Both the position numbers and the translations under genes were made by a program. Positions 402 to 20,617 of a stretch of DNA of 32,000 nt are shown piece after piece. Under the pieces are notes generated by a model. That model was not told the origin of the DNA and searched no databases. It saw only the letters and a program-made list of their open reading frames with translations. Positions within the stretch are counted from its first letter, which is position 1. Every line of letters starts with the position of its first letter. This DNA comes from Chlamydiota bacterium (GTDB taxonomy: Bacteria; Auribacterota; JACPWU01), in NCBI GenBank assembly GCA_016196885.1, contig JACPWU010000020.1:1-32000 (forward strand), read 5' to 3'.

Positions 402-587
402 CTAACTCAAAAAATGTACCAAAAACGAAATCCCTACTGCACAAGCCGTAAAAACAAAGAAGGTTTTCAATCCTTCATAAATCACCCGCTTCGCCTCTCT
501 ACGATTTAAGGCCGCCCACACAAAAGAAACAACCCCGCAAAGATATAAAAACAGGACCCCATATTTAAGAAGAGCTGCGGATATCAT
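402..587 (-). CDS. Small (61 aa) two-helix membrane protein, last gene of the long minus-strand operon
   Basis: ORF with two hydrophobic segments. Its ATG overlaps the upstream stop as ATGA (584-587). Confidence 0.45.
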   Translation of the reverse strand: MISAALLKYGVLFLYLCGVVSFVWAALNRREAKRVIYEGLKTFFVFTACAVGISFLVHFLS

Positions 588-952
588 TTTCCCCCTCGAT
601 ATTCTCTAAACGTCTCTATTAAATTCAACAGCACCAAAAGATTTAAGGAGCCTGAAACCAAAATGAAGGTTGTTCCGACTTCATTAAACGAAAAGGAAAG
701 CATTTGTGTGATCTCGTGTCTTAAAGTCAGAAGAAAGGGAAGGCCGTTAAAAAATTTTACAACGTAGGCAAGAACTGTCAGAGGGTTCATCTCCTCCCAC
801 AAAATCCCGCCTCCAAGCCAAAGGCCGATGCCGTAAAGGGATAAAATAGAAAGAGAAAGAAAAAAACCCAAACCTTTTCTCCCTAAATAAAAATGACCCG
901 CTCCCGGAATTAGAAATCCTAAAAAGAACGCCAAGGGATAATGTTTTTTCAT
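584..952 (-). CDS. Small polytopic membrane protein (122 aa) with a PGAGHFYLGRKG motif; family uncertain (TM2/DUF-like)
   Basis: Three to four hydrophobic helices. The ATG at 952 directly abuts the TAA (953-955) of the sugar transferase gene. Confidence 0.55.
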   Translation of the reverse strand: MKKHYPLAFFLGFLIPGAGHFYLGRKGLGFFLSLSILSLYGIGLWLGGGILWEEMNPLTVLAYVVKFFNGLPFLLTLRHEITQMLSFSFNEVGTTFILVSGSLNLLVLLNLIETFREYRGGK

Positions 953-2353
953 TTAATACGCATTCTCTCTCGCAAAAAGGGTTCGAAAAATAATCTTGAG
1001 GTCTAAAAGAATAGACCAATTTTCCAAATAATAAAGATCATACTTAATTCTTTCAGAAATGGAAGTATTTCCTCGAAGCCCATTGACTTGAGCCCAACCT
1101 GTCATGCCGGACTTGATTTTATGACGAGACATGTACCGGGGAACACGATCCTTAAATTCATTCACAAAATGCGGCCTTTCAGGGCGAGGGCCCACGAGAC
1201 TCATCTCGCCTTTAAGCACATTCCATAATTGCGGCAATTCATCCAAATTATATTTTCTCAAAAATTTTCCAATTTTGGTTCTGCGGGGGTCTTCACGACT
1301 CGTCCACACAGGACCTGTTTTTTCTTCCGCATTTTCATGCATGGTCCTAAATTTAATCATCGTAAAAGTGCGACCATCCTCCCCCACCCTTTCCTGCTTA
1401 TAAAAAACAGGCCCTCGAGAACTTCTCTTGACGAGAATCGCCAGAAAAAGAAAGAAGGGGGAGATCAGCACAAATCCAAGGCCCGCTCCTAAAACATCCA
1501 TTGATTTTTTCAAAAAGCGATTTGTCGCTTTTTCCAAAGGAAAAGGTTTCAATCCCAAAAGCGTCACGCCATAAAAATTTTCTATCTCTACCTGACTCGT
1601 CAAAATTTCAAAGACATTGGGAATCATTCGGAAATAAATCATCTCTCTTTCACAAGCAAGAATGACTTCTACCACCTTTTTTTGCTCCAATTCCGGAACG
1701 GCGAGCACCACCTCATCTATTCTTTCCTTTGCCAACACCTCGGAAAGAACATCCAGTGTTCCCAAGAGAGGAATTTTAGAATCTAAAAAAGAAACTTTAG
1801 CAGACTCTGCCAGAACGCCTATGATTTCATAAAAATCTCTTGCCTTTTCAAGCCCTCTGACAATTTTCCCAGATAAATCATTCACCCCGATGACCAAGAC
1901 CCTTTTTTTAATTCCAAAGCGCTTATAAAGAAATTTCTGAAGCTCTCCCAAACATTTTCTCCCCAAAAGAACAGAAACGACGCATAGAAGCCAAGCCACA
2001 ACGACCAAAAGTCTTGAATAGGAAACATCGCGATAAACAAAGGTCAAAGACATCAGAACAAACATCCCAAAAGTTACAGACTTGATCATTTGAAAAGGAC
2101 GGATTCCAGAACCTAATTTTCGACGAACATACAAGCCTCTCGCTTTAAATATCCAAAGCATGACCAAAATAGCCACCGGGAAATTAGCTTGATAGGAAAG
2201 AAAAGCGGGAATCCCTCGTGTCACTTGCAGGAGCCCTGAATGAAATCGAACCCAGAAGGCAAGACAAAAAGTGAGATACAGGACAAGGGCGTCTGTTAAG
2301 AAGGAGGCAACGGTCATCCAAAAATCAATCATGCGCTGTTTTGCTTTAGGCAT
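953..2353 (-). CDS. Polyprenyl-phosphate sugar-phosphate transferase (WbaP/WcaJ-type initiating enzyme, bacterial sugar transferase family)
   Basis: 466 aa with N-terminal TM helices and a central nucleotide-binding-like domain. The C-terminal catalytic block has RPFPLEK..., KFRTM and DELPQLWNVLKGEMSLVGPRP. Confidence 0.9.
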   Translation of the reverse strand: MPKAKQRMIDFWMTVASFLTDALVLYLTFCLAFWVRFHSGLLQVTRGIPAFLSYQANFPVAILVMLWIFKARGLYVRRKLGSGIRPFQMIKSVTFGMFVLMSLTFVYRDVSYSRLLVVVAWLLCVVSVLLGRKCLGELQKFLYKRFGIKKRVLVIGVNDLSGKIVRGLEKARDFYEIIGVLAESAKVSFLDSKIPLLGTLDVLSEVLAKERIDEVVLAVPELEQKKVVEVILACEREMIYFRMIPNVFEILTSQVEIENFYGVTLLGLKPFPLEKATNRFLKKSMDVLGAGLGFVLISPFFLFLAILVKRSSRGPVFYKQERVGEDGRTFTMIKFRTMHENAEEKTGPVWTSREDPRRTKIGKFLRKYNLDELPQLWNVLKGEMSLVGPRPERPHFVNEFKDRVPRYMSRHKIKSGMTGWAQVNGLRGNTSISERIKYDLYYLENWSILLDLKIIFRTLFARENAY

Positions 2354-2362
2354 AGAGAGGAT

Positions 2363-3460
2363 TTATTCTAACAAATTTCGTTCCTTCAAGAATTTTTTAA
2401 AGTCTCTGAGAAAAACATCCTTCCCAAATCGAAGGGCATTCTGTCTGAGAATCTTTCTATCATAAGAGAAGCTTTTAAACTTTTCAAGCACTTGACTCAA
2501 ACTCTCTTTCGTCTGTTCGTCAAAAAAGAGCCCCGTCTCTCCCTCCCTTACAGTCTCAAGCGCCCCCCCTTTTCGAAATGCGATGACAGGGGTTCCGCAG
2601 GCCTGCGCCTCTAGGGGCGTAATCCCAAAGTCCTCCTCACCCGGGAAAATCAAGGCTTGGGCCTGGGCATAATATTGACGGAGCTCCTCATCCGATCGCC
2701 ATCCCAAAAATTCAATGTGATTCTTGGCCATCCTTTTGAGTCTGTCAAGTTCAGTCCCAGCCCCTATCACCTTCAGAGGGCAATTTCCTTCATTAAAAAC
2801 TTCGATGGCCAATTCTATTTTTTTATAAGGGACCAAGGCCGAGACAATTAAAAAATAATCTTGCCTCTCATCCTTTTCGCGATAACAGAATTTCTCTCCA
2901 TCTACCGGCGGGTAAATCACAACCGCTTCTCTCTTATAAAAACGCTGAATCCTCTCGGCCACATGATTTGAAATTGCAATAAAATAATTTACATTCTGAA
3001 CTGTTTTTAAATCCCAGCGCCGAAGGAGATTCATGACGAGATTTAAACCCAGACGCTTCAGTCCGTGATACGGCCCCTTGCCAAAATATTCTTCATAAAA
3101 ACCCCACAAATATCTCATCGGCGTCAAACAATACGAGACATGCCTCGCTCCTCTTGGAAGGCGAACGCCCTTGGCCGCACAATGGCTGACACTGATCACC
3201 AAAGAAGGATGACCCAAGGAAAGACTCCGAATGGCCCAAGGGAAAAGGGGCAGATAATACCTGTATTTCAAGCGCCAGGCAGGTAACTTCTGAATCCATG
3301 AAGTTCGAATCTGCGACTTTTTAATCTTTTCAGAAATTTTTTCTGGCTCACACAATAGTGTGAAGATGGGAGCCTGCGGGAAAATATCCAACAAAGATTC
3401 TAGACATTTTTCCCCTCCCCTCATTCCGTTCAACCAATCATGAACAAAGGCAACGCTCAT
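2363..3460 (-). CDS. Glycosyltransferase, GT4 (GT-B, Glycos_transf_1) family
   Basis: The probable start is the ATG at 3460 (MSVAFVHDWLNGMRGGEKC), which forms an ATGA overlap with the upstream stop. The ORF-track start at 3514 would overlap the upstream gene by 58 nt. The C-terminal half carries an EDFGITPLEA-type GT4 motif. Confidence 0.85.
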   Translation of the reverse strand: MSVAFVHDWLNGMRGGEKCLESLLDIFPQAPIFTLLCEPEKISEKIKKSQIRTSWIQKLPAWRLKYRYYLPLFPWAIRSLSLGHPSLVISVSHCAAKGVRLPRGARHVSYCLTPMRYLWGFYEEYFGKGPYHGLKRLGLNLVMNLLRRWDLKTVQNVNYFIAISNHVAERIQRFYKREAVVIYPPVDGEKFCYREKDERQDYFLIVSALVPYKKIELAIEVFNEGNCPLKVIGAGTELDRLKRMAKNHIEFLGWRSDEELRQYYAQAQALIFPGEEDFGITPLEAQACGTPVIAFRKGGALETVREGETGLFFDEQTKESLSQVLEKFKSFSYDRKILRQNALRFGKDVFLRDFKKFLKERNLLE

Positions 3461-4593
3461 TTTTTGACAAGCTCCTCGTAAGTTTTGATAAGCCCCTGAG
3501 CCGCCGTCTCCCATGAAAATTTTTTCAATTGAGCATAACCTTTTTTGATCATCTCTTTTCTCATCTCTTCATTCTTTAAAACATGCTCGAGCGTTTCCAC
3601 CCATTTTCCAGAATCTTGAGGATCTAAAAGAATTCCAGCCTCTCCTGCCACCTCCGGCAAAGAAGCCCTATTCGAAACAACTGCAGGAACACCCGCGCTA
3701 AAAGCCTCTAGCACAGGAAGACCAAAACCCTCATAAAGAGAGGGCATCACGAAGAGATCGGCCAACTGATACAATCCGACCAATTCAGCTTGAGAAAGAA
3801 AGTCTGTTAGAATCACTTTTTTCTCCAGGCCCAGTTCTTGAATCAGAGAAAAAAGCTCTGGATACCTTTCATCACAAGGACCGGCCAAAACAAGCGATGC
3901 GTGGGGCAACTTTGTCAAAAGACGATGAAAAATTTTAACCAGGCCCATTAAATTTTTATAAGGATCCTGACGCCCCACACAAAGAATCATGGGGTGCGTT
4001 AGATTCAATTTCTTCTCGACATCCGAAGAAGGCTCTGATTTTTCAAAAGAAGGGTCAATGCCAAATTTCAAAACGCTTGTTTTCTGAAGGGTGTTTGGAA
4101 AATGGCTTACAAGATCCTGATAAGAATGTTCCGAGTCTACAAAGACATGATGAACCCTTTTCACAATCCAAAACATGAGAAGGCGATAAAGCTTATAAAA
4201 CCGGCTTTTCTTGGAACGCGGAGCAAAATGAGGAAAAAGAAACGGTATCAAATCGTGAAGGGTGACCCCCAGCCGGGTGCCAAAAGTAAAAAGTGGAATC
4301 ATAAAATTTGGGGAATGAAAAATATCAATTTTGAGTTTTTTTAAATGGAGGGGTAAAAAAATTTGACTCGAGAGAGAAAAAACACCATGAGGGAAAAGAA
4401 CGAGATGAAAAAAGGGGTCCTGAAAAATTTCTAAAATCTCGCAAGTCTCTTTCATGATTTTTTTATTTGAAAAAAATAAAAAATATTCGTCGGTTTTATT
4501 TTCCTTCATCAAAAATCGAATCATATTGATCGTATATTGACCAATCCCAGAAGGCTTTTCAATGATCCACCGAGCGTCTATTGCGATCTTCAT
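3457..4593 (-). CDS. Glycosyltransferase, GT4 family
   Basis: 378 aa starting MKIAIDARW...GIGQYT, with the YEGFGLPVLEAFSAGVPAV motif. ATGA overlap at 4590-4593. Confidence 0.85.
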   Translation of the reverse strand: MKIAIDARWIIEKPSGIGQYTINMIRFLMKENKTDEYFLFFSNKKIMKETCEILEIFQDPFFHLVLFPHGVFSLSSQIFLPLHLKKLKIDIFHSPNFMIPLFTFGTRLGVTLHDLIPFLFPHFAPRSKKSRFYKLYRLLMFWIVKRVHHVFVDSEHSYQDLVSHFPNTLQKTSVLKFGIDPSFEKSEPSSDVEKKLNLTHPMILCVGRQDPYKNLMGLVKIFHRLLTKLPHASLVLAGPCDERYPELFSLIQELGLEKKVILTDFLSQAELVGLYQLADLFVMPSLYEGFGLPVLEAFSAGVPAVVSNRASLPEVAGEAGILLDPQDSGKWVETLEHVLKNEEMRKEMIKKGYAQLKKFSWETAAQGLIKTYEELVKK

Positions 4594-5690
4594 TTAAAAC
4601 AGCTCTCGTAAACTTCTAATGTTTGACGCGCAGACTTTTCCCAATCAAATTTTTTAACCTGCTCGAGACCCTTTTGAATAAAGTCTTTTCTCAAACCCTG
4701 ATCCCGAGCCATCTTTTCCAACCCCGAAGCCAATTCCTCGGTATCCTCAGGATTTTCAATCCACAAGGCCGCATCCCCTAACACCTCTGGTAAAGAGGCC
4801 TTGCGAGAAGCAATGACAGGGATGCCAGAGGCCATGGCCTCCAAAGGGGGTAGGCCGAAACCCTCATAAAAAGAGGGGTACACAAACATCATCGAACTTT
4901 GATAAAGCTGGATCAACTCATCCTCAGAGACATAATCCAAAACTTGTATCCGATCCCGATACCGATGACGCTGAAGCGCCTTAAAAAAGCCCTCGCAAAG
5001 CCACCCCCTCATGCCTGCAATGACGAGGCGATAATCTCGCAATAAAGTTTTATCTAAAAAAATTTCAAAGGCCTTTAAAAGTCCCTCCAAATTCTTCCGA
5101 GGCTCCAGGGTTCCCACAAATAAAATTTGTCTTTCAGGCGTTTTTTTGACCGACACAAAATGACTCGCCAGGCCCAGATGAATGACATGAATTCTCTTCT
5201 CGTCTATTTTAAAAAGATCTAAAAGCTCCTGCTTGGTAAAAAGTGAATCCGCAATGATTTGATCTGCCACTTCTAACGTTCTTTTAAAAGAAGTCGTTAA
5301 ATATTTCAGATTTTTAGACTCCGTATATTGAGGATATCTAAAAAAGGAAACATCGTGAAGGGTCACAACTTTTTTGCCCCTTCGAAGGGGTTGAATCACA
5401 AAATTTGGAAAATGATAAACGTCACCTTCCCCAAAGAAAAAATCATAGGGAGGCCACTGGATTTTCTTCCAAATCTGTTGAATAAAACGTCCCGGGAGAG
5501 GACAGGCCACTTTTTGGAAATTCGCTCCCAAAGAAGGAACTTTTGAACCGCGTTTCTTAAAATCAAAAAATGAAAGGCGGTAATCATTTTTCGCGTCTAC
5601 TTTTGAAAGGCCATGAATCAGCCCCCAAATGTAATAGCCGACACCCGACTTGGCCCCCAAAAGCGGTTGAACGTCAATCGTGATTTTCAT
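4590..5690 (-). CDS. Glycosyltransferase, GT4 family
   Basis: 366 aa with the [19 protein letters not shown] motif. ATGA overlap with the upstream GspM-like gene at 5687-5690. Confidence 0.85.
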
Positions 5691-6109
5691 GAGGTTACAA
5701 GGCTCAAAGACAAGGTAAGCGTTCCGGATAAACCTCCGGGTGTGATGGAAACACTTTTAAGTCGAAAGGTATTCAATTGATCAAGCTCTTTCAAAAAGGT
5801 CAGCATCTCATTCTGAGTGATGTTTTGAAGAAGGAGCTCTGCCTCTCCAGGAAGAGGTTTTAAATACGAAATTTTTTCTTTCAAAGAAAGCCGATTCATG
5901 ACTTCACTTAAATCTTTCAAGACAGAACTTGAAGAACCTTTCATTTTTTGTTCCATTCTCTCCTTTAAATGCAACCATTCTGAATATTCTCTCTCGAGCT
6001 CTCTATTCTCAGACTGAAGGACATGAAGAGAGCGAAAGGTGAAGAAGAGCCCAAGGACTAAACCTGAAAGGACGATAAAAATAACAGAGAAAACTATTTT
6101 TCTTTTCAT
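5687..6109 (-). CDS. GspM/PilO-like bitopic inner-membrane protein (assignment by topology and context)
   Basis: 140 aa with one N-terminal TM helix (IVFSVIFIVLSGLVLGLFF), a coiled-coil stretch and a small C-terminal domain. It sits directly after the GspL-like gene with an ATGA overlap (6106-6109). Confidence 0.5.
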   Translation of the reverse strand: MKRKIVFSVIFIVLSGLVLGLFFTFRSLHVLQSENRELEREYSEWLHLKERMEQKMKGSSSSVLKDLSEVMNRLSLKEKISYLKPLPGEAELLLQNITQNEMLTFLKELDQLNTFRLKSVSITPGGLSGTLTLSLSLVTS

Positions 6110-7416
6110 ACATCCACCGTGATGCTAAAAAACCATTTTCCTTCTTCCCCCGAGCGATCAATACCGATCAAACGAATTTTATCCCCCTTTTCTTTTTTAA
6201 GATCTTCTACCCATTGTTGAATCCGTTCGACAGAAGAGCCTACGCCTTCTAACTTTAAAGAATCTTGTTCCAAAAAAATCTTTCCTATTTCAATATCCGT
6301 GGACTTAAAACGATAAAGAGAAGAGAGTGCCTTCAAAAATAAAGAGGGTGTCACTTTAGGCAAAACACCCGCGCTGCCTAATTTTTCTTTCAATTGTTCT
6401 AGGGGATTGAGCAGAGGGGTATCTGGAGGAAAAATTTGATGGAATTCCTTTTCCATTTGGATTTCGAGAAAATCCTTTTCTTTGTGTTTTTGATATAGAC
6501 CCACAGATCCTAAAAATTCTGCACAGAACATGCTCAAAAAAAGGAGGAGCGCTGAACGTGTCAAAGATTTTTTAATCAAATTGTTCTTCCAAAGCGTTTT
6601 TGTAACTGATTCGCAAACAACCGCTGGATTGAGGAGGCCTTGACTAAAAGCAACCGCCGTTGCAACCAGAAAGAGTTCGTCCTGCATTCCTTGAATCGGT
6701 TTGGGCAATAGATCACCCTTAAGATGAATCCAGGGATAAGCTCGCCGATCTAGAGAGCGACGGGTTTCTTCATCCACCCAGGAAAAGAATTTTTGAAGGC
6801 CGAGATCCTGTTGAAAAGTTTGTTCTAAAAAAGACGGGAGGCTCTCAAAATGAGATGAGCGAAACACCCTCAAGCCCAACATCTTTCCATTCTTCCCCCA
6901 AAGCAATTGAAAATTTTCATCACCCTTTAGCAAAATCACGCATGTTTCCCCCTGAGGAAATTTAAAAATAAAGGAAAGCCCTTGAAACAAGGCCCCCGGA
7001 TCCATTTGTAAAATCGCGCGATCCCCCTTATTTTTGAATGGAAGCTTTTCTCTGGGGAGCAAAAATTGAAGATAGGAATCGCTTGTTCCCTTTTTCCCCA
7101 CGGGTAAGCTATAAACTTCACAATCCTCCTCACGGCTTGGAATCGCCATTTCAGAAGCTGTGCTTAAAATTTGATCCTTCACTTTTTTCGAAATGTTGCA
7201 AGGAGGCATGGTTTCGTACAAATAAGAATTCTCCAAAGGGAAAGGGATACAGAGAAGAGAAAATTTCTTCTGTAATCTCTCCAGGGAATTTTCCTCGAGG
7301 CGCTCCTTGGAAAGCTCGGCTTGTTCAATTCCCTCATCCTTGAGAGAGAGATGTAAAAGGTGATACTGATTGTCTTTTAGGAATTGAATGGCTGTTATTT
7401 TCATTGTTCTACCCAT
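6106..7416 (-). CDS. GspL-like (or PilM-PilN-fusion-like) assembly protein
   Basis: About 290 aa of cytoplasmic domain, a single TM helix (ALLLFLSMFCAEFLGSVGLY) and about 120 aa of periplasmic domain, which is the GspL topology. An alternative start at 7404 gives an ATGA overlap with the gspK stop. Confidence 0.5.
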   Translation of the reverse strand: MGRTMKITAIQFLKDNQYHLLHLSLKDEGIEQAELSKERLEENSLERLQKKFSLLCIPFPLENSYLYETMPPCNISKKVKDQILSTASEMAIPSREEDCEVYSLPVGKKGTSDSYLQFLLPREKLPFKNKGDRAILQMDPGALFQGLSFIFKFPQGETCVILLKGDENFQLLWGKNGKMLGLRVFRSSHFESLPSFLEQTFQQDLGLQKFFSWVDEETRRSLDRRAYPWIHLKGDLLPKPIQGMQDELFLVATAVAFSQGLLNPAVVCESVTKTLWKNNLIKKSLTRSALLLFLSMFCAEFLGSVGLYQKHKEKDFLEIQMEKEFHQIFPPDTPLLNPLEQLKEKLGSAGVLPKVTPSLFLKALSSLYRFKSTDIEIGKIFLEQDSLKLEGVGSSVERIQQWVEDLKKEKGDKIRLIGIDRSGEEGKWFFSITVDV

Positions 7417-8198
7417 TCTCGGATCTTCATTTCTCCAAGAGATCTTTCTACCATCACGCTGAGTCTGGCTTTACCTTCCGACAAATCCCGGATGATCACA
7501 TGAAAAGAGGTGCTTCTCACAGCCAAGAAACTCGAAACATCACGGGACAGGCTTCGAATCTCTTCCTCGGAAAGAGGCCTTTTTTGCCTTCGAGAAAGAA
7601 TCTCTTTTACCAGAAAGGGCTCCCCCTCTTCCAGCAAAACCTCTAAAACCTCTTTCGGGGCTGTATTCACATTGACGCGACCCTCCGAGTGAACCGTCAG
7701 ATAACGCGCAAGATTCAAATGCGATTCTTTTTGAGCTCGCTCTAAAATGGGGATCTGATTCAACGTTTGAAAAGGACCCTTTGATTTGACAAATTCAAGA
7801 ATCCCTTGTCTAAGGAATGGAGAAAGATGGAGTTTCTCAAACAACTTTTCAATCCATTTTTGATATTGCCCTCTCAAGGTCTCATCGGAACTCACCAGTT
7901 GATTAAGATTCAGTTTGCCCGATTCATCTTCAAGCTGGAACTCAAAAGGCAAGTTTTTTCCCAAAGCCTGGAGGCGCGTCCAGTCCGCATTCTTCTCACC
8001 CTCTCTTGCTACCTCATCTATGATTTGACAAACGCAGGACCGAGCCTCTATTTTCTTACGATTTTCCTCCATTTCTCCATGAACCTTCATGCGGTATTGA
8101 TTCACCCTCCCCGCGAAGAAAACCAAAAACGACACAAGAATAAATAGACTCAAAACGCATTGAATTAAAATAAACCCTTCTTTTCTTTTCATATCCAT
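7401..8198 (-). CDS. gspK: Type II secretion minor pseudopilin GspK
   Basis: N-terminal hydrophobic helix (EGFILIQCVLSLFILVSF). GspK hallmarks EDESGKLNLNQL and GRVNVNTAPKEVLEVL are present. I chose the ATG at 8198 (or 8192). The ORF-track start at 8258 is a TTG inside a repeat region. Confidence 0.8.
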   Translation of the reverse strand: MDMKRKEGFILIQCVLSLFILVSFLVFFAGRVNQYRMKVHGEMEENRKKIEARSCVCQIIDEVAREGEKNADWTRLQALGKNLPFEFQLEDESGKLNLNQLVSSDETLRGQYQKWIEKLFEKLHLSPFLRQGILEFVKSKGPFQTLNQIPILERAQKESHLNLARYLTVHSEGRVNVNTAPKEVLEVLLEEGEPFLVKEILSRRQKRPLSEEEIRSLSRDVSSFLAVRSTSFHVIIRDLSEGKARLSVMVERSLGEMKIREWVEQ

Positions 8199-8204
8199 CC
8201 CGCA

Positions 8205-8370
8205 TTTCTCATCACATTTCTGCTGCTCTTCTCCGATTCCGCCTCGTCTGCTTCGCAAGAAAGGTCGGCCACGCTCAACATACTGTAAAGTATGCCTCGC
8301 GTGGCCTCAGTCGTCTTCCTCGCATTCAAAGCGGACTCGGGCGTTCCTCGCGACGAAATCTGATGAGAAA
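8205..8370. repeat. About 166-nt nested imperfect palindrome inside the gspJ-gspK spacer
   Basis: Outer arms are TTTCTCATCACATTTC (8205-8220) and GAAATCTGATGAGAAA (8355-8370), matching 15/16. Inner arms are GGCCACGC (8267-8274) and GCGTGGCC (8299-8306). The apical hairpin is CATACT-gtaa-AGTATG (8279-8294). Confidence 0.75.
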
Positions 8371-8411
8371 CGGCCATGACTGTCCGTCACAAAGGGGGAT
8401 GAAAATCACCC

Positions 8412-8460
8412 TTGTAGTCGCCCCATTTATGGGGCTGCCCGATGAATCGGGCGACTACAA
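8412..8460. repeat. Three-way-junction palindromic element, copy 1 (core only)
   Basis: TTGTAGTCG / CGACTACAA forms the outer stem. It encloses two 5-bp hairpins, CCCCA-TTTA-TGGGG and CCCGA-TGAA-TCGGG. The same core occurs at 18527-18596 and 20653-20711. Confidence 0.8.
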
Positions 8461-8488
8461 GTCATCATAACTTATTGTATAAGAATAA

Positions 8489-8947
8489 CTAAAGACTATT
8501 TTCAGATGAAATGCTCCATCGAATGGCCTGGGGTTTCTCACCTTCATGGCATTCCTCAACCCATTGATCCTGAATCCAAAAAGACCAGTCTGACTCCTCA
8601 AGATGGTTAAGGAGAATTTTTTTACCGGGGGAAAGCGTGTCCAAAAGATAAAGCGATCCCCGTTCATAAGCATACTTTGTCTTTCCTGAAGCCTTTTGGA
8701 AAACAAGGTTTTTTGAGTCTCCTTCAAAAGGCTCTAGAGGAAAGGCGATCTCTCTTTCCAATATTTGGACAACATTTCTAAGACCCTCCGATGGATCTTG
8801 AGTCAAAACTTCCTTGAGAGAAAGCCGCATTTTCAAAAGCAAGGTGGAGGCCGCTCCCCACACCAAAAGAATCATGCACAAAGCTACCATGATTTCGAGC
8901 AGGGTAAAGCCAGATAAGTTTTTATTTCTTATTTTGAGAAGGTGCAT
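8489..8947 (-). CDS. Minor pseudopilin (GspJ-like), prepilin-type N-terminal domain
   Basis: Has the SGFTLLEIMVALCMILLV prepilin cleavage/methylation motif. The ATG at 8947 leaves a 13-residue leader. Confidence 0.65.
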   Translation of the reverse strand: MHLLKIRNKNLSGFTLLEIMVALCMILLVWGAASTLLLKMRLSLKEVLTQDPSEGLRNVVQILEREIAFPLEPFEGDSKNLVFQKASGKTKYAYERGSLYLLDTLSPGKKILLNHLEESDWSFWIQDQWVEECHEGEKPQAIRWSISSENSL

Positions 8948-9326
8948 AAAAAAATTCTTCCAAAGAATCGCCCGCAAGACCTCGACGTGCCTGCCAGTAA
9001 ATCTGTACTTGAATTTTCCTCAATGCAGGGCCCTCCACGGAGACCTTGCAAGAAAAATTAAAATGGATATTCTCTACGGACCGAGACGGACAATCAAAAT
9101 GTTTTTCTAGAGGGGCCTGGCCGATCAAAACTTCAGATTCTATTTTCGCAAGCTCTATTTGAGCCAGTAAACCTGCCTCCTCTTCCAACTGAAGCTCGTG
9201 GTACTGAAAAATCTGATTTTGTAAAAACTGATAGGCCGACGGGAGAAGAATGGCGAGAATGCCCAGGGAAAGAATCGCTTCCAGAAGAATAAAACCTTGA
9301 CAATGAAAAGACCTTTTAGAACCCAC
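8922..9326 (-). CDS. Minor pseudopilin (GspI/GspH-like), prepilin-type N-terminal domain
   Basis: Has the QGFILLEAILSLGILAILL motif. The likely start is the GTG at 9326, 2 nt after the gspG stop. The ORF-track start at 9359 is a TTG that overlaps gspG. Confidence 0.6.
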   Translation of the reverse strand: MGSKRSFHCQGFILLEAILSLGILAILLPSAYQFLQNQIFQYHELQLEEEAGLLAQIELAKIESEVLIGQAPLEKHFDCPSRSVENIHFNFSCKVSVEGPALRKIQVQIYWQARRGLAGDSLEEFFYAPSQNKK

Positions 9327-9328
9327 CG

Positions 9329-9769
9329 TTAAACCGAATTTTCTTCGTTCAAATTCCAACTTTCAATATCCTGATCCCACCCTGAGCCACCCCGGCGGCC
9401 ATCCTGTCCAAAGGATGCAATGTCATAAGAACGCCCCTGAAGACCTGGCGAGAGATAAAGATAGGGATGCCCCCAGGGATCTAGCGGGATTTTATCTGCC
9501 TCTAAATATTTCTTATGATTTTGATTTCCTACTCGAATCAGCCCATCTAACCCCTCACTGCTGGTCGGGTATACTCCTCGATCCACGTTGAAAAATTCCA
9601 AGGCGTCCTGAAAAGATTTGATCTGAAGAACAGCCTTCAAGTGCTTGGCCTGCTTAGGCCGCTGTGAAAGTTGAGGAACAACAATGACAGCCAAAATCCC
9701 CAGAATGGCCATCACAATCAGAATTTCTAGTAAAGTAAACCCCCTTTTTTTAGACACGTGATAAAACAT
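9329..9769 (-). CDS. gspG: Type II secretion major pseudopilin GspG
   Basis: KRGFTLLEILIVMAILGILAVIVVPQ at the N-terminus, plus the C-terminal GspG signature DPWGHPYLYLSPG...YDIASFGQDGRRGGSGWDQDIESW. Confidence 0.9.
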   Translation of the reverse strand: MFYHVSKKRGFTLLEILIVMAILGILAVIVVPQLSQRPKQAKHLKAVLQIKSFQDALEFFNVDRGVYPTSSEGLDGLIRVGNQNHKKYLEADKIPLDPWGHPYLYLSPGLQGRSYDIASFGQDGRRGGSGWDQDIESWNLNEENSV

Positions 9770-9776: not shown

Positions 9777-9804
9777 ATTATACTTGAAAGCCCTCCCTTT
9801 TCAA
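9777..9804 (-). promoter_or_regulatory. Candidate sigma70 promoter of the gspG operon (leaderless or near-leaderless)
   Basis: On the minus strand, TTGAAA (9804-9799), a 16-nt spacer, then TATAAT (9782-9777). Only 7 nt separate the -10 box from the ATG at 9769, and there is no Shine-Dalgarno. Confidence 0.45.
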
Positions 9805-9819: not shown

Positions 9820-11394
9820 ATGATTGATCTTCTCTTTAAAAATGTCTCTGTCGTTGATGGCACGGGAAGTAAGCCCAGGCTTTCCGATGTCGCCATTTCT
9901 GGCGATCACATCCTAGAGATTTCTCCAAAAATAGAGGCCTTGGCGAAAAAGGTCATTGATGGAAAAGAAAAAATTCTCTCACCCGGTTTTATTGACATGC
10001 ACGGCCACACCGATCATTTCTTTTGCGTGGATCCCCAATCCTCGAGCAAAGTCCTTCAAGGAGTCACAACAGAGGTCTGTGGAAATTGCGGCTATTCCCC
10101 TTTTCTGCTTACGCAAAAATTTATTCCTCACTTTCAGCCAGAATTAAATCAATACGGCCTGGATCAAAATTGGCATGACTTGGCATCCTTTAAAAATGCG
10201 GTCTCTCAATCGAAACCTGCGATCAACTGGCTCACCTTGGTAGGCCACGGAACACTGAGACTGGCATGCATGGGGTATGACAATCGGCCTCCCAGGCCTG
10301 AAGAATTAAAATGGATGAAGCTCGAGCTCGAGAAGGCCATGGACCAAGGGGCCATCGGGTTTTCAACAGGCCTCATTTATACGCCCGGCTGTTTTGCCGA
10401 GAAGGAAGAACTGATTGAACTGGGAAAAGTTGTGGCTCAAAAAGGGGGGTTCTATGCGACGCACATGAGAAGCGAAGGGGATCAACTGTTAGAATCCATT
10501 GAGGAAGCCCGCCTCATTGCTCGGACTTCTCAAATCCCTCTCCAAATTTCTCATCTTAAAACGGCCGGCGAAAAAAATTGGAATAAAATAGGTCCCGTTC
10601 TAGAAAGTTTAGAAAAGGCTCAAGCGAGTGGCGAAGACATTTTATGGGACCGCTACCCCTATGCCGCCTCCTTCACTTCTTTGGACACCTGTCTTTCTAG
10701 AGACCTCTTTGATGGGGGAGACCTTCAGGCCGTTCAAAGGCTGAAGGATCAAAAGATACGCGATCCATGGATTCATAAACTGAACGAGTTAAGCCCCCGG
10801 TTCGCAAGCACACTCATCGCCTATTTACCTGGCAAAGAGAATCAACAATGGATCGGAAAAAATTTAAACGAGTGCGCCCTTCTGAACAAAAAAACGATTG
10901 GAGAATTTGTCATTGACCTTTTGGTCGCTGAAAAAATGCAAGTGAACGCCATTTTCTTTTCCATGTCTGAAGAGAATTTAGACCGCATCCTTTCTCATCC
11001 GAGCGCCATGCTCGGGTCAGACGCCTCTGCAAGAAGCCGCAATGGAAAAACATTTTTAAATACGGTACACCCACGCACGTATGGGACTTTTCCAAGATTT
11101 ATTAAAAAATATGTCATAGACTCAAAAAAGATTTCTCTGGAAGAAGCCGTTCGAAAAATGACGGGCCTTGCCTCTCAAAGATTGAAACTTAAAAAGCGTG
11201 GGTTTATCAAGCGGGGTTATTACGCTGATCTCGTTTTGTTCGATCCCAAAACTCTAGAAGACTGTGCCACCTTTCAAAATTCGACAGAAGATTCAAAAGG
11301 AATAGAAAGGGTCTTGGTCAACGGAAAAACAGTGGTTGAAAAAGGAAGAGAGACAGCGCAAAGAGCCGGGATTTTTCTGGAAAGAGAAGCGTGA
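9820..11394 (+). CDS. N-acyl-D-amino-acid deacylase (D-aminoacylase), amidohydrolase superfamily
   Basis: 524 aa with GFIDMHGHTD (metal HxH), QGVTTEVCGNCG, the THMRSEG block and the C-terminal ADLVLFDP motif typical of this family. Confidence 0.85.
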   Translation: MIDLLFKNVSVVDGTGSKPRLSDVAISGDHILEISPKIEALAKKVIDGKEKILSPGFIDMHGHTDHFFCVDPQSSSKVLQGVTTEVCGNCGYSPFLLTQKFIPHFQPELNQYGLDQNWHDLASFKNAVSQSKPAINWLTLVGHGTLRLACMGYDNRPPRPEELKWMKLELEKAMDQGAIGFSTGLIYTPGCFAEKEELIELGKVVAQKGGFYATHMRSEGDQLLESIEEARLIARTSQIPLQISHLKTAGEKNWNKIGPVLESLEKAQASGEDILWDRYPYAASFTSLDTCLSRDLFDGGDLQAVQRLKDQKIRDPWIHKLNELSPRFASTLIAYLPGKENQQWIGKNLNECALLNKKTIGEFVIDLLVAEKMQVNAIFFSMSEENLDRILSHPSAMLGSDASARSRNGKTFLNTVHPRTYGTFPRFIKKYVIDSKKISLEEAVRKMTGLASQRLKLKKRGFIKRGYYADLVLFDPKTLEDCATFQNSTEDSKGIERVLVNGKTVVEKGRETAQRAGIFLEREA

Positions 11395-12104
11395 ATATGA
11401 AACCTGAAATTGCCATTTTAACAGGCCTAGAAAAGCCGCCGGAAAAACCTTATCCGGACGCGGTCACAAATTATTTTCAAGCCGTTTCAGACTCCGGGGG
11501 AGAACCTCGACTTCTTTCACCCTTGGATGCTTCCAGTGCCTCACCTCTTTCTTACATCCATGGCCTTTTACTCACAGGAGGCGGAGACATCCCTTCTTAT
11601 TTTTGGGGAGAAAAATCAGACATTCCCCCAAAATCAAAAGACGAAAGAAGAGCAAAGTTCGAAATTCCTCTCATCCGTCAAGCGGCTCAGCAAAAAATAC
11701 CCATCCTAGGAATATGCCTGGGACTTCAAGCCATCAATGTCGCTTTTGGAGGAAGCCTCTACACCGATTTTACAACGACGGCACATTCTCAACTTCACTG
11801 TCGAAAATTAGACGGGAGCTCCTCTTATCACAAAATTGAAGTTTTAGAAAAAACCAAACTAAGAGAAATTCTGCCGCCCGTGACCGAAGTGAACAGCCGC
11901 CACCATCAAGCCATCAAACGCTTGGGAAAAGGGCTTCAGATCTGTGCCGTCGCCCAGGATGGCATCATTGAAGGGATTGAAGGGAAGGACTTTCCCTGGC
12001 TAATAGGTGTCCAATGGCATCCTGAAGACCTGTTTCAGGATCATCCCACTCAGCACAAAATCTTCGAAAAATTTGTCGAGGCATGTAGAAAATATGAGAC
12101 TTAA
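11391..12104 (+). CDS. Gamma-glutamyl-gamma-aminobutyrate hydrolase family protein (peptidase C26, class I glutamine amidotransferase-like)
   Basis: ILGICLGLQAINVAFGG (nucleophile Cys), SRHHQAI and GVQWHPE. The start is either the GTG at 11391 (GTGA overlap with the upstream stop) or the ATG at 11397. Confidence 0.85.
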   Translation: MNMKPEIAILTGLEKPPEKPYPDAVTNYFQAVSDSGGEPRLLSPLDASSASPLSYIHGLLLTGGGDIPSYFWGEKSDIPPKSKDERRAKFEIPLIRQAAQQKIPILGICLGLQAINVAFGGSLYTDFTTTAHSQLHCRKLDGSSSYHKIEVLEKTKLREILPPVTEVNSRHHQAIKRLGKGLQICAVAQDGIIEGIEGKDFPWLIGVQWHPEDLFQDHPTQHKIFEKFVEACRKYET

Positions 12105-13734
12105 AAATAAAAGTTGGAAGTTGGAAGTTGGAAGTTGGATGCAAAAACCAAGAACATTCTTTTCTTTTTTGCCTTTAACCTTCAACCTTCAACCTCCAAC
12201 TTTCTTCTTAATCAGTCTGTGCATTTTATTCCTCCATGGCTGCTCTAGACCTATAGATGATTCTAAAACCCTCAACCTCTACTTCGATGCAGACCCCATC
12301 ACTTTAGATCCCGCCCTCATCACGGACGTTCGCAGTGGAAAATTGGCCGCGCTTCTTTACGACACGCTTCTTCAATATGATGAAAAATTAACTCTCATCT
12401 CTAGTCTCGCAAAATCTTGGAAAATTTCGAAAGACGGCAAGGTCTATACCTTTCTTCTCAGATCTGACGTCCCCTTTTCAAATGGGCGCTTTTTAAAAGC
12501 TAGAGATGTCCGCTTCAGCCTAGAACGCCTGGCTTCTCCCTCTAATCAATCCCCCCGAGCTTGGATTTTATCTCATGTTCAGGGATTTCAAGAATTTCAA
12601 GAAAAGAAGAACAAACATATCTGTGGGATCAGAATTCTCAATTCCCACAAAATAAAAATTGTTCTCCAGAGGCCTTTCTCACCTTTTTTATCGATGCTCA
12701 CCATGCCCAATGCCAGCATTATTTCTAGGCAATCAGGCCAAGCCTTCATTGGCTCAGGACCTTTTAGACTTGCTCATTGGCGTCATGATTATGAAATGGT
12801 GCTTAAAAAAAATCCTAACTATTTTCAAGGGGCTCCCGAGATCAAGCAAATTTGCTTTAGAATCATCAAAGAAACCCTTTTCGTCTCTTCAGAATTTAGA
12901 CGCGGACATCTGGATATGATAGAAGTCCCAGGCCCTGAACTCTCTCTTTATTTAAAAGATCCCCAATGGGAAAATCACCTTGTCTTTCAAGAGAATCCCA
13001 ATCTTTATTATCTGGGATTCAATTGCCGTCAAGAAGCCCTTCAAAAAAGTGAAATACGTAAGGCGATCGCCACCGCCATCGACCTCCCTCTACTGCTTGA
13101 AACCCTCAAAAAAAATAAGGCCTCTCGGATCAACGGTCCCATACCCTCTCTTTTAGAGGACCCTTCTCCCCTCCAACCTCTTTCCTACCATCCTGATTTG
13201 GCTCGAGAAATTCTCATTCAGAATCATTTTAATTTTGACCGTCCATTGACCCTGCTTCAAAGCAGCAACGAAGAAACCCTAGAGCTCTCAGAGGCGCTCC
13301 AATTCATGCTTCAAGCGATTGGCGTTCAAGTTAAAATTGTGGAAAAAGAATGGAGCTCCTTTAAATCGAGTTTGAACCAAGGAGATTTCGACCTCTTTCT
13401 CATCAGTTGGTGGGCTGATTATCCGGACGGAGAAAATTTTCTCTATCCCCTTTTTCACTCCTCCAATTGGCCGAGCGGTGGAAATTATACAGGCTTTTCA
13501 AATTTAGAAATAGATTCCTTGATTGAAAAATTACAAAACTCATCCTCTTCTAACGAACAAAGAAAAATATCCGATACGATTCAAGAAAAAATATTAGACG
13601 AATCCCCCCTTGTTCCGCTCTACAGTTCACGAACGTGCTTGCTCGAACAGCCCTGGATCAAAGGCTACACGCCTCATCCCCTTTACAATGGCAATAAATA
13701 TCTTCATATCTCAAAGGAGATTTCCTCTCCATGA
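12094..13734 (+). CDS. ABC transporter substrate-binding protein, family 5 (peptide/nickel; OppA/DppA-like), probable lipoprotein
   Basis: Family-5 SBP length and motifs (DADPITLDPA, WWADYPD). FLHGC is a lipobox-like site. The start is uncertain, either the ATG at 12094 or at 12139. The track start at 12007 lies inside the previous gene. Confidence 0.85.
   Translation: MRLKNKSWKLEVGSWMQKPRTFFSFLPLTFNLQPPTFFLISLCILFLHGCSRPIDDSKTLNLYFDADPITLDPALITDVRSGKLAALLYDTLLQYDEKLTLISSLAKSWKISKDGKVYTFLLRSDVPFSNGRFLKARDVRFSLERLASPSNQSPRAWILSHVQGFQEFQEKKNKHICGIRILNSHKIKIVLQRPFSPFLSMLTMPNASIISRQSGQAFIGSGPFRLAHWRHDYEMVLKKNPNYFQGAPEIKQICFRIIKETLFVSSEFRRGHLDMIEVPGPELSLYLKDPQWENHLVFQENPNLYYLGFNCRQEALQKSEIRKAIATAIDLPLLLETLKKNKASRINGPIPSLLEDPSPLQPLSYHPDLAREILIQNHFNFDRPLTLLQSSNEETLELSEALQFMLQAIGVQVKIVEKEWSSFKSSLNQGDFDLFLISWWADYPDGENFLYPLFHSSNWPSGGNYTGFSNLEIDSLIEKLQNSSSSNEQRKISDTIQEKILDESPLVPLYSSRTCLLEQPWIKGYTPHPLYNGNKYLHISKEISSP
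12109..12204 (+). repeat. Inverted heptamer arrays forming a long hairpin around the SBP start codon
   Basis: (GTTGGAA)x4 lies at 12113-12140. The complementary array CTTCAAC CTTCAAC CTCCAAC lies at 12178-12204. That gives about 26 paired positions, with 3 A-C mismatches and 2 G-U pairs on the + strand. Confidence 0.85.
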
Positions 13735-14672
13735 AAAATTATTTTTTGAAAAAATTATCGAGCTCTGTCTTTGTTTTATTGGGAACTCTGCTCCTTACCT
13801 TTATTCTCATTCAAGCCATTCCGGGAGATCCCATCCAAAATTTCATAGGTCAAAGGGCCGATCTAGAAACCATCGCCCATCTAAAACAGGAATGGGGGCT
13901 GGACCAATCTATTCCTTATCAATTCATGAAATACATCGGGAGAACTCTTCAAGGCAATCTGGGACAATCCTATTTCACCCATGAGTCCGTTCTCAACAAT
14001 TTGCTCGAGCGATTACCTGTGACAGCTCTTTTGGCAGCCCTGGCCATTCTGATCGGCGCCTTGATAGGAATTCCTTTTGGGATTTTATCGGCAACATATC
14101 CCAACACCTTTCTAGCAAAAATGCTTCTTTTTCTCACCCTCTTGGGAAGTTCTTTACCTGTTTTCTGGGCCGGGGTTCTCATTCTCATTGCGGTGTCTAA
14201 AATTAAAATGTTGGATGCCACGAACAGCCTCAGTCCTCTGGCGATCAATTTATTTTTGGCGGCCCTTGTTTTAGGAATCCGTCCCTGGGCCATGTTGGCC
14301 CGCGTCACCCAATCTCAAATGGGAGAAGTGCTCCAGGAGGACTATATCCTGAGCGCCTGGGCGCGGGGTCTCTCGAAAAAGAGAATCATTCTCAATCACG
14401 CACTTCGGAATTGTTGGGCCCCTATTTTAACAGCCCTGGCTCTAGACTTTGGAAGCCTCTTAAGTGGGGCCGCCATCACGGAAACCATTTTTGGAATCCC
14501 GGGCATGGGAAAATTTGCCCTCACAGGTCTTGCCAGGAGAGATTATCCTGTCATCATGGGCATGGTCCTTTTTTCAGCACTCATTTTTATCAGCATTAAT
14601 TTTTTGACAGACTTGATGCTTCCAATATTAGATCCAAAAATTAAAAGAAATAACTCCCCCAACCCCTCTTAA
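13731..14672 (+). CDS. Peptide ABC transporter permease (OppB/DppB-like)
   Basis: 313 aa with six TM segments and the SAWARGLSKKRIILNHALRN EAA-loop region. ATGA overlap with the SBP stop. Confidence 0.9.
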   Translation: MKNYFLKKLSSSVFVLLGTLLLTFILIQAIPGDPIQNFIGQRADLETIAHLKQEWGLDQSIPYQFMKYIGRTLQGNLGQSYFTHESVLNNLLERLPVTALLAALAILIGALIGIPFGILSATYPNTFLAKMLLFLTLLGSSLPVFWAGVLILIAVSKIKMLDATNSLSPLAINLFLAALVLGIRPWAMLARVTQSQMGEVLQEDYILSAWARGLSKKRIILNHALRNCWAPILTALALDFGSLLSGAAITETIFGIPGMGKFALTGLARRDYPVIMGMVLFSALIFISINFLTDLMLPILDPKIKRNNSPNPS

Positions 14673-14723
14673 AATAAGAGGGGAGCTCTGCTCCTTTTGT
14701 ACTCTCCCCTTACTTAAGGGGAG
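14663..14723. repeat. Twin short palindromes (REP-like) between the two permease genes
   Basis: CCCCTCTTA-aaa-TAAGAGGGG (14663-14683) and CTCCCCTTA-ct-TAAGGGGAG (14704-14723). A related copy, CCCCGCTTA-tt-TAAGGGGGG, lies at 30218-30237. Confidence 0.7.
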
Positions 14724-14762
14724 ATGGAGGGGTTAATTTTTTATTAAAAAAGTAAAAAAATC

Positions 14763-15578: not shown

Positions 15579-16311
15579 CATCAAAAATTTGACCCTCTCC
15601 TTTCCCCATCCTCAAAAAGGATTTGTAAATGTCGTGGAAAATCTCTCTCTTGAAATTTCTAAAAATAAAATCCTCGGGTGGGTCGGCGAATCAGGCTCCG
15701 GAAAAACCATGACCGCTCTTTCGATCGCAGGACTTTTAAAATTAAAATTTCCCAGTGCTCGAATGAAAGGACAAATTTTGTATGAAGGCGAAGACCTTGC
15801 TTCAGCCGATGAGAAGAAGCTTCGCCTCTTGCGAGGAAAGAAAATCAGCATGATTTTTCAAAATCCCTTCACATTTTTTAATCCCTCAATCAAAATAGGT
15901 CATCAATTTAAAGAAATCTCAAGAGGACCTTCCTCTCCTATTTCTGAAATCCTCAAAAAAGTAGAGCTCTATGACCCAAATAGAATTTTAAAAAGTTATC
16001 CCTACGAATTAAGCGGAGGACAATTGCAGCGGCTGGCGATTGCCCAAGCCATTCTGCACGACCCTGAAATCATCATTGCCGACGAACCCACTACGGCGCT
16101 CGATGCCTCCCTCAAATGGGGAATTTTAACCCTCCTCAAAAAAATCAAAGAGGAGCAAGGGCTAACACTCGTCCTGATTTCGCATGACCTCGCTTCCCTC
16201 CCAGGAATCTGTGATGAAATCGCCCTTTTTGATCGAGGGCATTTGCTCAAAAAAACACCCGCAGCTACTTTCTTCGAAAAAACAGGGACATCCCTATGCC
16301 CCTCCTCTTAG
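15571..16311 (+). CDS. Peptide ABC transporter ATP-binding protein (OppD/DppD-like, short form)
   Basis: Walker A GESGSGKT, signature LSGGQLQR and Walker B IIIADEPTTALD. It is only 246 aa and has no C-terminal oligopeptide-transporter extension. Confidence 0.9.
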   Translation: MINIKNLTLSFPHPQKGFVNVVENLSLEISKNKILGWVGESGSGKTMTALSIAGLLKLKFPSARMKGQILYEGEDLASADEKKLRLLRGKKISMIFQNPFTFFNPSIKIGHQFKEISRGPSSPISEILKKVELYDPNRILKSYPYELSGGQLQRLAIAQAILHDPEIIIADEPTTALDASLKWGILTLLKKIKEEQGLTLVLISHDLASLPGICDEIALFDRGHLLKKTPAATFFEKTGTSLCPSS

Positions 16312-20608: not shown

Positions 20609-20617
20609 TTTCTTATT

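Follow-up and report, generated by a model that had tools for sequence, protein, structure and literature searches.

The window analysed here is a 32-kb stretch of DNA from a Chlamydiota bacterium (positions 1 to 32,000 of contig JACPWU010000020.1, assembly GCA_016196885.1). Between positions 402 and 9769, its minus strand carries an operon of 12 genes in which the distal part of a type II secretion system (T2SS) runs directly into a set of genes for the synthesis of a lipid-linked glycan. The gene content and order had been described in an earlier note made from the sequence alone, and profile searches together with a reading of the open reading frames (ORFs) recovered all 12 genes as described. 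In the direction of transcription, the region contains the following features.

9777-9804, minus strand: match to a sigma-70-like promoter (TTGAAA-16-TATAAT, 11/12)
9329-9769, minus strand: gspG, major pseudopilin, 146 amino acids (aa), leader KKRG/FTLLE
8922-9326, minus strand: minor pseudopilin, GspI-like by size and position, 134 aa, CQG/FILLE
8489-8947, minus strand: GspJ-like minor pseudopilin, 152 aa, LSG/FTLLE
8199-8488: noncoding gap of 290 nucleotides (nt) between the second minor pseudopilin gene and gspK, with a palindromic repeat element inside
7401-8198, minus strand: gspK-like minor pseudopilin, 265 aa, KEG/FILIQ
6106-7404, minus strand: gspL-like assembly protein, 432 aa, with an actin-like cytoplasmic domain, a transmembrane (TM) helix, and a small periplasmic domain
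5687-6109, minus strand: gspM-like protein, 140 aa, with an N-terminal TM segment (residues 5-23), a coiled region, and a small C-terminal domain
4590-5690, minus strand: GT4 glycosyltransferase 1 (GT1), 366 aa
3457-4593, minus strand: GT4 glycosyltransferase 2 (GT2), 378 aa
2363-3460, minus strand: GT4 glycosyltransferase 3 (GT3), 365 aa from the ATG at 3460
953-2353, minus strand: initiating polyprenyl-phosphate hexose-1-phosphate transferase (PGT) of the WcaJ/WbaP class, 466 aa
584-952, minus strand: DUF6677 membrane protein, 122 aa
402-587, minus strand: conserved 61-aa protein with two hydrophobic segments and no family match

The five 4-nt ATGA overlaps that had been named for the stretch from gspK to GT3 are all present (7401-7404, 6106-6109, 5687-5690, 4590-4593, and 3457-3460), and a sixth, at 584-587, joins the DUF6677 and 61-aa genes. 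Distances of 0 to 10 nt had been given for the last junctions, and we measured 9 nt between GT3 and PGT and 0 nt between PGT and DUF6677. The picture of an unbroken run held from gspK to GT3 but not ahead of gspK, where the 290-nt gap intervenes. We saw no convincing terminator within 402-9769, the GT genes included, that would split these genes off. The putative promoter, identified by consensus matching only, lies within the 50 nt that separate gspG from the divergent gene upstream; because its −10 element ends 8 nt before the ATG, the predicted gspG transcript would be leaderless or nearly so. Collectively, the overlaps argue for co-transcription and likely translational coupling.

The T2SS-type half of the operon

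The gspG product exceeds the cutoff of its equivalog model (TIGR01710, 126.6 bits versus 88.85) and matches both Pfam T2SSG (E value of 1e-28) and N_methyl (E value of 5e-9). It is 64 to 70% identical to its orthologues in three related loci, namely L004 (NCBI metagenome-assembled genome [MAG] GCA_016178055.1), L006 (a Logan contig), and L008 (a JGI contig). The I-, J-, and K-like genes carry prepilin motifs in the right order and have the right sizes, and their hidden Markov model (HMM) scores all lie under the cutoffs. The GspI-like protein matches N_methyl with an E value of 0.008, has a hydrophobic segment at residues 11-29, and is 29 to 35% identical to its orthologues. For the GspJ-like protein, the E values are 0.01 (T2SSJ) and 0.001 (N_methyl); its orthologues in L004 and in a further locus, L005, match T2SSJ faintly, and its C terminus is about 10 aa shorter than those of its relatives. 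These two genes probably start at GTG 9326 and ATG 8947 and not at the TTG codons of the longest ORFs. The GspK-like protein, whose orthologues are 32 to 37% identical, reaches 48.7 bits with NF037980 (E value of 7.6e-13, under the cutoff of 130) and an E value of 0.006 with Pfam T2SSK. GspK typically has no Glu at position +5, and this residue was absent from K in all five orthologues examined.

The earlier note had assigned the two products encoded at 5687-7416 to GspL and GspM. The first assignment stood, and for the second we found just weak T2SSM matches. Sequence models placed the GspL-like protein below cutoff, with E values in the marginal range of 0.007 to 0.04 (GspL_C, 0.01; T2SS_L_SYNERG, 0.007). 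As the AlphaFold model built from the single sequence was unusable (predicted local distance difference test [pLDDT] of 38), a nine-sequence alignment was used instead and gave a model with a pLDDT of 82. When this model was compared with known structures by Foldseek, its N-terminal 270 residues matched PilM (5eou, E value of 6e-9; also 3jc8 and 2ych), PulL (5tkw), and the cytoplasmic GspL domain from a complex with GspE (4pht_X, E value of 1e-7, TM-score per target 0.57). A hydrophobic TM helix at about residues 285-303 is followed by a beta-beta-alpha-beta-beta C-terminal domain, to which GspL_C aligns weakly. As modelled, the 6106-7404 product thus has the architecture of GspL. The family is rare: when 1.8 billion cluster representatives were searched exhaustively with HMMER, nine members (counting the query) and one marginal match to an unrelated protein came up; a word-indexed search returned the query alone and an alignment query two proteins. 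Identity among relatives is about 21 to 34%, and the family profile had no matches among PDB sequences.

The GspM-like protein is encoded directly 3′ of gspL and falls under every threshold (T2SSM, E value of 0.04; T2SS_M_SYNERG, 0.003). T2SSM was the commonest weak match among its orthologues (three of six, best E value 0.0017), and its profile gave coiled-coil noise only against PDB sequences. Size, topology, and position make its identity as GspM consistent but unproven.

In the canonical T2SS operon, such as Klebsiella pul or Vibrio eps, the gene order is gspC-D-E-F-G-H-I-J-K-L-M. The genes studied here keep the canonical relative order of G, the minor pseudopilins, K, L, and M, and share with the canonical system a GspG that passes the equivalog model, a GspK without Glu at +5, and a GspL composed of a PilM-like domain, a TM helix, and a periplasmic domain. 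They differ in that the I, J, K, L, and M products are too diverged for curated thresholds and in that the operon continues unbroken into glycan synthesis genes. Moreover, gspC, D, E, F, H, N, and O are missing from the window and from the flanks of relatives. The earlier note had reported that no gene for the secretin GspD, GspE, GspF, GspC, or a prepilin peptidase adjoins the operon, and this absence extends to the whole 32-kb window and to the flanks of L004, L006, and L008 (domain annotation, up to 10 kb a side); GspH was likewise not found in the window. A split T2SS is plausible here because scattered T2SS-like loci have been described in Omnitrophota, where gspD, gspE, gspF, and small class III signal-peptide genes lie in separate loci (bioRxiv 10.1101/2023.11.21.568195). 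In those loci the secretin, ATPase, and GspF genes stand beside giant adhesin-like genes (10.1101/2023.11.21.568195), whereas the present operon holds just the pseudopilus and the L/M half, joined to glycan genes, and comes from a host whose membership in Omnitrophota is uncertain.

The glycan cassette, its spread, and its junction with gsp genes

The first two glycosyltransferases match Glycos_transf_1 with E values of 3e-36 each and are 55 to 63% (GT1) and 55 to 58% (GT2) identical to their orthologues; GT3, whose N-terminal motif is VHDWLNGMRGGEKCL, matches the same family with an E value of 5e-30. The PGT scores above both relevant cutoffs (TIGR03025, 450 bits versus 296; TIGR03023 WcaJ, 437 versus 411) and matches Bac_transf with an E value of 2e-73. 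DUF6677 was recognized by PF20382 (E value of 2.5e-19) and bears the motif PG.GH.Y.G in its N-terminal part. Its presence in the loci examined was limited to this clade and to “Candidatus Theseobacter exili” (an Omnitrophota MAG, L033), where it forms with a protein of about 60 aa a pair that always lies 3′ of PGT. ORFs orthologous to the 61-aa gene are present in L004, L006, L008, L009 (a GTDB species representative), and L033, and in the last of these DUF6677 and the small protein are encoded at 6120-6661. A metagenome scan with a DUF6677 alignment query returned one 1.6-kb contig only, and literature searches turned up no mention of the family. A role of the pair as a flippase or accessory subunit would be pure guesswork.

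Profile searches found no Wzx, Wzy, Wzz, or Wzc in 402-9769. The claim that Wzx, Wzy, and Wzz are absent is therefore right for the operon, but the window does contain a Wzy_C-domain gene at 18794-20629. One WcaJ-type initiator and three GT4 enzymes fit the short-oligosaccharide pathway that had been proposed, and the proposal is strengthened by seven genomes in which a Wzy_C gene follows PGT. With Wzx/Wzy-type O-antigen and capsule loci the pathway shares a large WcaJ/WbaP-class PGT with a CoA_binding_3 domain and GT4 enzymes predicted to build on undecaprenyl diphosphate; in contrast to them, the operon has no Wzx, Wzy, Wzz, Wza, Wzc, or sugar-nucleotide synthesis genes. O-antigen genes are usually hypervariable, whereas this cassette is conserved across phyla.

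To survey the cassette, a GT3 alignment was searched against 185,579 species genomes, and the best 80 of at least 583 loci were analyzed by using HMMs made from orthologue sets. In these 80 loci, the GT3 family spans more than ten phyla at about 46 to 54% identity, with L009 at 64%. PGT lies directly downstream of GT3 in 44 of the 74 loci with room for it, and in 36 of 69 loci the gene immediately before GT3 is GT1- or GT2-like. Only in L009 is the cassette accompanied by the full gsp set, and a prepilin-motif scan placed true pilin-type neighbours only in L009, L039, L082, and L088. L039, a deltaproteobacterial MAG, encodes at 10396-20354 GT3-PGT and an 818-aa Wzy_C+TPR protein, followed within 1 kb by gspE, gspF, gspG, and gspH. 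In L088, two GspG genes occur near the cassette, but ThiC and other unrelated genes lie between, and we rejected this locus as a link to a T2SS.

Whether the junction of gsp and GT genes is conserved in related genomes had been put forward as a decisive point, and it proved to be kept in at least six other lineages. The order G-I-J-K-L-M-GT-GT-GT-PGT-DUF6677 recurs complete in L004, L006, L008, and L009. L007, a short contig with a GC content of 57.6% (about 40 to 43% in the window and the other relatives), covers G to GT1. In L033, a contig-truncated protein with a TM segment and a PilN domain is followed by an M-like protein, the cassette, DUF6677, and the small protein. Across the five relatives other than L033 the glycan enzymes are 55 to 68% identical to those of the window, while I, J, K, L, and M are much less so (23 to 37%), and the M protein of L008 has no significant pairwise match to that of the window. 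The window, L006, L007, and L008 nevertheless share a 4-nt overlap at the gspM/GT1 junction, which measures 27 nt in L004. Downstream of the operon, an ExbBD pair found in the relatives does not adjoin it in the window.

NCBI labels the proteins of the window and of L004 as those of a Chlamydiae/Chlamydiota MAG, and the nearest cassette outside the clade belongs to an Omnitrophota MAG. CarB homologues, which are 61 to 75% identical in many phyla, gave no information on the taxonomy. The link to “Ca. Theseobacter exili” and a DUF1559 pilin encoded in the window suggest a host in the wider PVC/Omnitrophota neighbourhood, although its true placement is uncertain.

A Wzy_C+TPR enzyme, a neighbouring pilin, and other features of the window

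The Wzy_C-domain gene belongs to a second minus-strand group, which comprises the following features.

22895-24172, minus strand: histidine kinase, upstream of the response regulator in a PilS/PilR-like layout
21461-22840, minus strand: sigma-54-dependent response regulator, upstream of the pilin gene
21317-21332: sigma-54-like −24/−12 match, 41-56 nt before the pilin start codon
20779-21276, minus strand: type IV pilin-like protein with N_methyl and DUF1559 domains, a Ser/Ala/Pro-rich tail, and a C-terminal Ser
20713-20754: perfect 20-bp hairpin with a T-run, between the pilin and Wzy_C+TPR genes
18794-20629, minus strand: membrane protein with a Wzy_C domain (O-antigen ligase/O-oligosaccharyltransferase superfamily) and C-terminal TPR, 9 kb from the operon

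The 18794-20629 product, whose true start is probably the ATG at 20608, matches Wzy_C with 47 bits (E value of 2.8e-12, cutoff 31.7) and, in addition, TPR models. Homologues of this protein are encoded directly after PGT in seven loci, three from Omnitrophota (L026, L055, and L084), three from Planctomycetia (L034, L040, and L049), and L039. Gene context in other genomes thus ties the cassette to a Wzy_C-type transferase, and the GT-GT-PGT-Wzy_C arrangement constitutes a widespread cassette for which curated family models and literature searches gave no specific function. In the six loci other than L039, the Wzy_C protein after PGT measures 400 to 440 aa. Residues R275, H325, and E334 of the Wzy_C+TPR protein are invariant among it and the seven homologues, and the Arg and His lie in the expected periplasmic loop; a Wzy_C-domain enzyme with a conserved catalytic His is, however, also what WaaL ligases are, so that this feature fails to separate an oligosaccharyltransferase from a ligase.

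The Wzy_C gene starts 150 to 170 nt 3′ of the pilin gene on the same strand, and the whole minus-strand layout at 18794-24172 (kinase, regulator, pilin, hairpin, repeat element, Wzy_C+TPR) resembles pilS-pilR-pilA-tfpO. The sigma-54 pattern occurs nine times in the window against 12 expected by chance, and just the position of this copy upstream of the pilin is suggestive. By analogy with known systems, the DUF1559 pilin, 11 kb from the operon, is a plausible best candidate for an O-glycosylation acceptor. Every known O-oligosaccharyltransferase carries a Wzy_C domain, TfpO and TfpM modify a type IV pilin at a C-terminal Ser or Thr, and TfpM and PglS tolerate glucose at the reducing end (PMC9829042). 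As in the loci of TfpO/PilO (Pseudomonas aeruginosa 1244, Acinetobacter), TfpM (Moraxellaceae), and PglL (Neisseria), a pilin gene is followed by a Wzy_C gene on the same strand (PMC9829042). The likeness to TfpO and TfpM extends to the pilin, which ends in Ser after a Ser/Ala/Pro-rich stretch, and to a short lipid-linked glycan pathway in the same region, here with an initiator that is probably of the glucose type. Unlike TfpO and TfpM, which are 420 to 470 aa long and have no TPR (PMC9829042), the Wzy_C protein of the window is 604 to 611 aa long and carries TPR, and its presumed glycan genes stand in the gsp operon, away from the pilin.

Several further features of the window were recorded. 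A double-hairpin repeat resembling REP or MITE elements is present in three copies.

8411-8461: copy within the 290-nt gap
18527-18599: copy bordered by 29-nt inverted arms (18484-18512 and 18598-18626)
20654-20714: copy between the pilin hairpin and the Wzy_C+TPR gene

In this element, an outer stem GTAGTCG...CGACTAC encloses the hairpins GCCCC-ATTTAT-GGGGC and GCCCG-ATGAAT-CGGGC, and the inner hairpins vary among the copies through paired G/C swaps. The copy at 8411-8461 folds with −37.7 kcal/mol (z score of −4.6). Neither the repeat nor the rest of the window had a match in Rfam. The gap at 8199-8488 is an insertion, as J and K overlap in the relatives, which lack it. Just 3′ of the Wzy_C+TPR stop codon, at 18653-18702, two perfectly inverted 23-nt arms are separated by 4 nt and may form a terminator or another repeat element. 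The 17807-18400 gene encodes a predicted secreted protein of 197 aa with a signal-like N-terminal segment and a Pro/Ala-rich C terminus, for which no Pfam or NCBIfam family was matched. Finally, at 22895-25503, CoaC (flavoprotein) and CoaB (DFP C-terminal domain) are encoded by separate genes and not by a fused coaBC, and the last 11 nt of coaB also form the start of the histidine kinase gene, an unrelated gene.

Relation between the pseudopilus and the glycan

We propose that the locus is a conserved, lineage-specific composite operon from which a pseudopilus would be co-expressed with a short glycan; a Wzy_C enzyme would then transfer this glycan, with pilin-like proteins as conceivable acceptors. 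Of the explanations considered, we regard this one as the likeliest, at about even odds. The gsp half would supply the distal part of a T2SS operon (GspG, the tip pseudopilins I, J, and K, and the inner-membrane proteins GspL and GspM) and would have to work with a secretin, an ATPase, GspF, and a prepilin peptidase encoded elsewhere. The WcaJ-type enzyme would load a hexose-1-phosphate, probably glucose, onto undecaprenyl phosphate, and the three GT4 enzymes would extend it, with no polymerase involved, to a lipid-linked tetrasaccharide. An unlinked flippase would flip this glycan, and a Wzy_C-type transferase would then use it. The candidate transferase is the Wzy_C+TPR protein encoded at 18794-20629, given that other phyla encode such an enzyme right after PGT. 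A plausible acceptor would be the adjacent, putatively sigma-54-controlled pilin with its Ser-terminal tail, and other envelope or pilin-like proteins may also be modified. The fusion of the two gene sets in one operon would therefore mean that a filament or secretion apparatus is co-expressed with a glycan that decorates a type IV filament or envelope proteins. O-glycosylation and type II secretion are functionally connected in Vibrio cholerae, whose secretion output changes with its O-glycosylation status (PMC6901666).

Several observations weigh against this proposal. The GT-GT-GT-PGT cassette is an autonomous module that occurs across more than ten phyla almost always without gsp genes. 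Its co-location with a T2SS in L039 is independent and has another gene order, yet is suggestive only, since by a rough estimate about one such co-location is expected by chance among some 78 loci. On the enzyme side, O-antigen ligases and polymerases are Wzy_C proteins too, the Wzy_C+TPR protein gave no match to a PglL_A domain, and no flippase was identified. In other phyla, no pilin gene lies near the Wzy_C homologues that adjoin the cassette, and a metagenome scan with the Wzy_C+TPR query found no relatives, the pilin/Wzy_C pairing included. The GspG orthologues have no conserved Ser/Thr tail and no Ser/Ala/Pro-rich stretch, and end in V, N, I, or T. With regard to gene order, the upstream amidohydrolase and peptidase C26 genes are also conserved in L004, L006, L008, and L009, so that part of the conserved adjacency is general synteny and may reflect slow rearrangement within a narrow clade. 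Lastly, tight gene packing is a property of this genome: of the 20 same-strand junctions that the window has outside the operon, seven are overlaps, among them CoaB/histidine kinase and peptidase C26/solute-binding protein. Since overlaps are common here between unrelated genes, the fixed stoichiometry claimed in the earlier note does not follow, even though the translational coupling claimed with it is likely, and overlaps do not by themselves indicate shared function.

Several of these points feed the strongest alternative, according to which half of a T2SS and an envelope-glycan cassette are merely packed into one transcription unit as an inherited order, without any mechanistic or substrate link; the product could, for example, be a single O-unit or core extension that a Wzy_C enzyme of the WaaL type attaches to lipid A-core. 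The rarity of gsp genes beside the cassette in other lineages, the retained upstream synteny, the overlaps between unrelated pairs, and the cassette-adjacent Wzy_C genes without a nearby pilin all favour it. On the other hand, the gspM/GT1 junction has been kept, mostly as a 4-nt overlap, despite a GspL identity of just 23 to 33% and a GC range of 38 to 58%, and it has been kept in “Ca. Theseobacter exili” as well. Moreover, the downstream flank of the window has changed while the operon stayed intact, the cassette stands beside a T2SS again in L039 in a different order, and the pathway is about 50% identical across phyla, which is at odds with the hypervariability usual among O-antigen genes. 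We consider this alternative possible but rather doubtful.

A stronger version of a link would couple the GspL/GspM platform, both physically and in stoichiometry, to the glycan line (PGT, the GTs, DUF6677, and the 61-aa protein), so that the pseudopilus is decorated with the tetrasaccharide or pushes out a glycoconjugate. We think this improbable; were it true, uncultured PVC/Omnitrophota-like bacteria would possess a type IV filament machine of a new functional class.

The two specific hypotheses of the earlier note, pseudopilus-driven polysaccharide export and a glycosylated pseudopilus, are both conceivable but found no support. In the former, the pseudopilus with a GspL/M piston would push out the glycan or a glycoconjugate. 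Its closest parallel is the hps cluster of Nostoc punctiforme and other filamentous cyanobacteria, which combines minor pilin and polysaccharide synthesis genes (PMC12288463) and in whose hosts polysaccharide is no longer released when pilB or pilQ is lost (PMC12288463, PMC7690835). The earlier note knew of no system in which GspL/M-type components are coupled to glycan synthesis. For pilin-type genes kept with glycan genes, the hps clusters are a described parallel, but neither they nor the TfpO/TfpM systems include GspL/M, and literature searches turned up no description of gspL or gspM joined to glycan synthesis. Both the hps cluster and the present operon unite minor pilin-type and glycosyltransferase genes in one conserved cluster, with a suspected tie between filament and glycan (PMC12288463), and this co-clustering, as well as the two small membrane proteins of unassigned role conserved at the operon end, would be in line with export. 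However, hps works with type IV pili and includes a Wzx/Wzy-type polysaccharide system and a Wza/Wzc-type exporter (PMC12288463), whereas the filament genes here are of the T2SS type, GspL/M included, and the locus has no polymerase, copolymerase, Wza-type outer-membrane exporter, or flippase. One initiator and three GTs would yield an oligosaccharide and not a polymer. The GTs are also not orthologues of HpsO or HpsP, as they score 67 to 85 bits with EPS_HpsP and 44 to 49 with EPS_HpsO against cutoffs of 550 to 575. Even in Nostoc, the pilus-piston idea once proposed is still unresolved, and a Wza-type route was found later (PMC12288463). We therefore judge export by the pseudopilus very unlikely.

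The same low probability applies, in our estimate, to GspG or the minor pseudopilins being dedicated acceptors of the tetrasaccharide, which would explain the tight coupling of the genes. Co-transcription, the conserved order, and the well-established glycosylation of type IV pilins by Wzy_C enzymes (PMC9829042) are compatible with it. Against it stand the GspG tails, which show no conserved Ser/Thr, and the fact that the Wzy_C gene adjoins another pilin, one that does have a suitable tail and is the better acceptor candidate; a limited literature search turned up no report of a glycosylated T2SS pseudopilin. Finally, that the gsp/GT junction is a chimera of MAG assembly is hardly credible: short-read contigs from this organism do end at the multi-copy repeat, within the J-K gap and just ahead of the 20654-20714 copy, but gspK-L-M-GT1-GT2-GT3-PGT lie on a single independent Logan contig of that organism, and the same order recurs in at least five independent assemblies (NCBI, JGI, Logan, and GTDB).

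Irrespective of how the two halves are related, the analysis delimits a widespread, uncharacterized glycan cassette of four genes, often with a Wzy_C enzyme encoded next, and a very rare, fast-evolving GspL family that is missed by sequence models. The PGT, the three GTs, the Wzy_C+TPR enzyme, and the Ser-tailed pilin constitute a candidate set for glycoengineering. If the link is one of co-transcription only, the locus would represent an ordinary operon fusion in compact genomes. If the link is functional, the locus would be the first case of T2SS-type assembly genes (GspL/M) in a translationally coupled operon with a lipid-linked glycan pathway, and would suggest the presence of glycan-decorated filaments or secretion machinery in uncultured bacteria that are poorly known and possibly host dependent.

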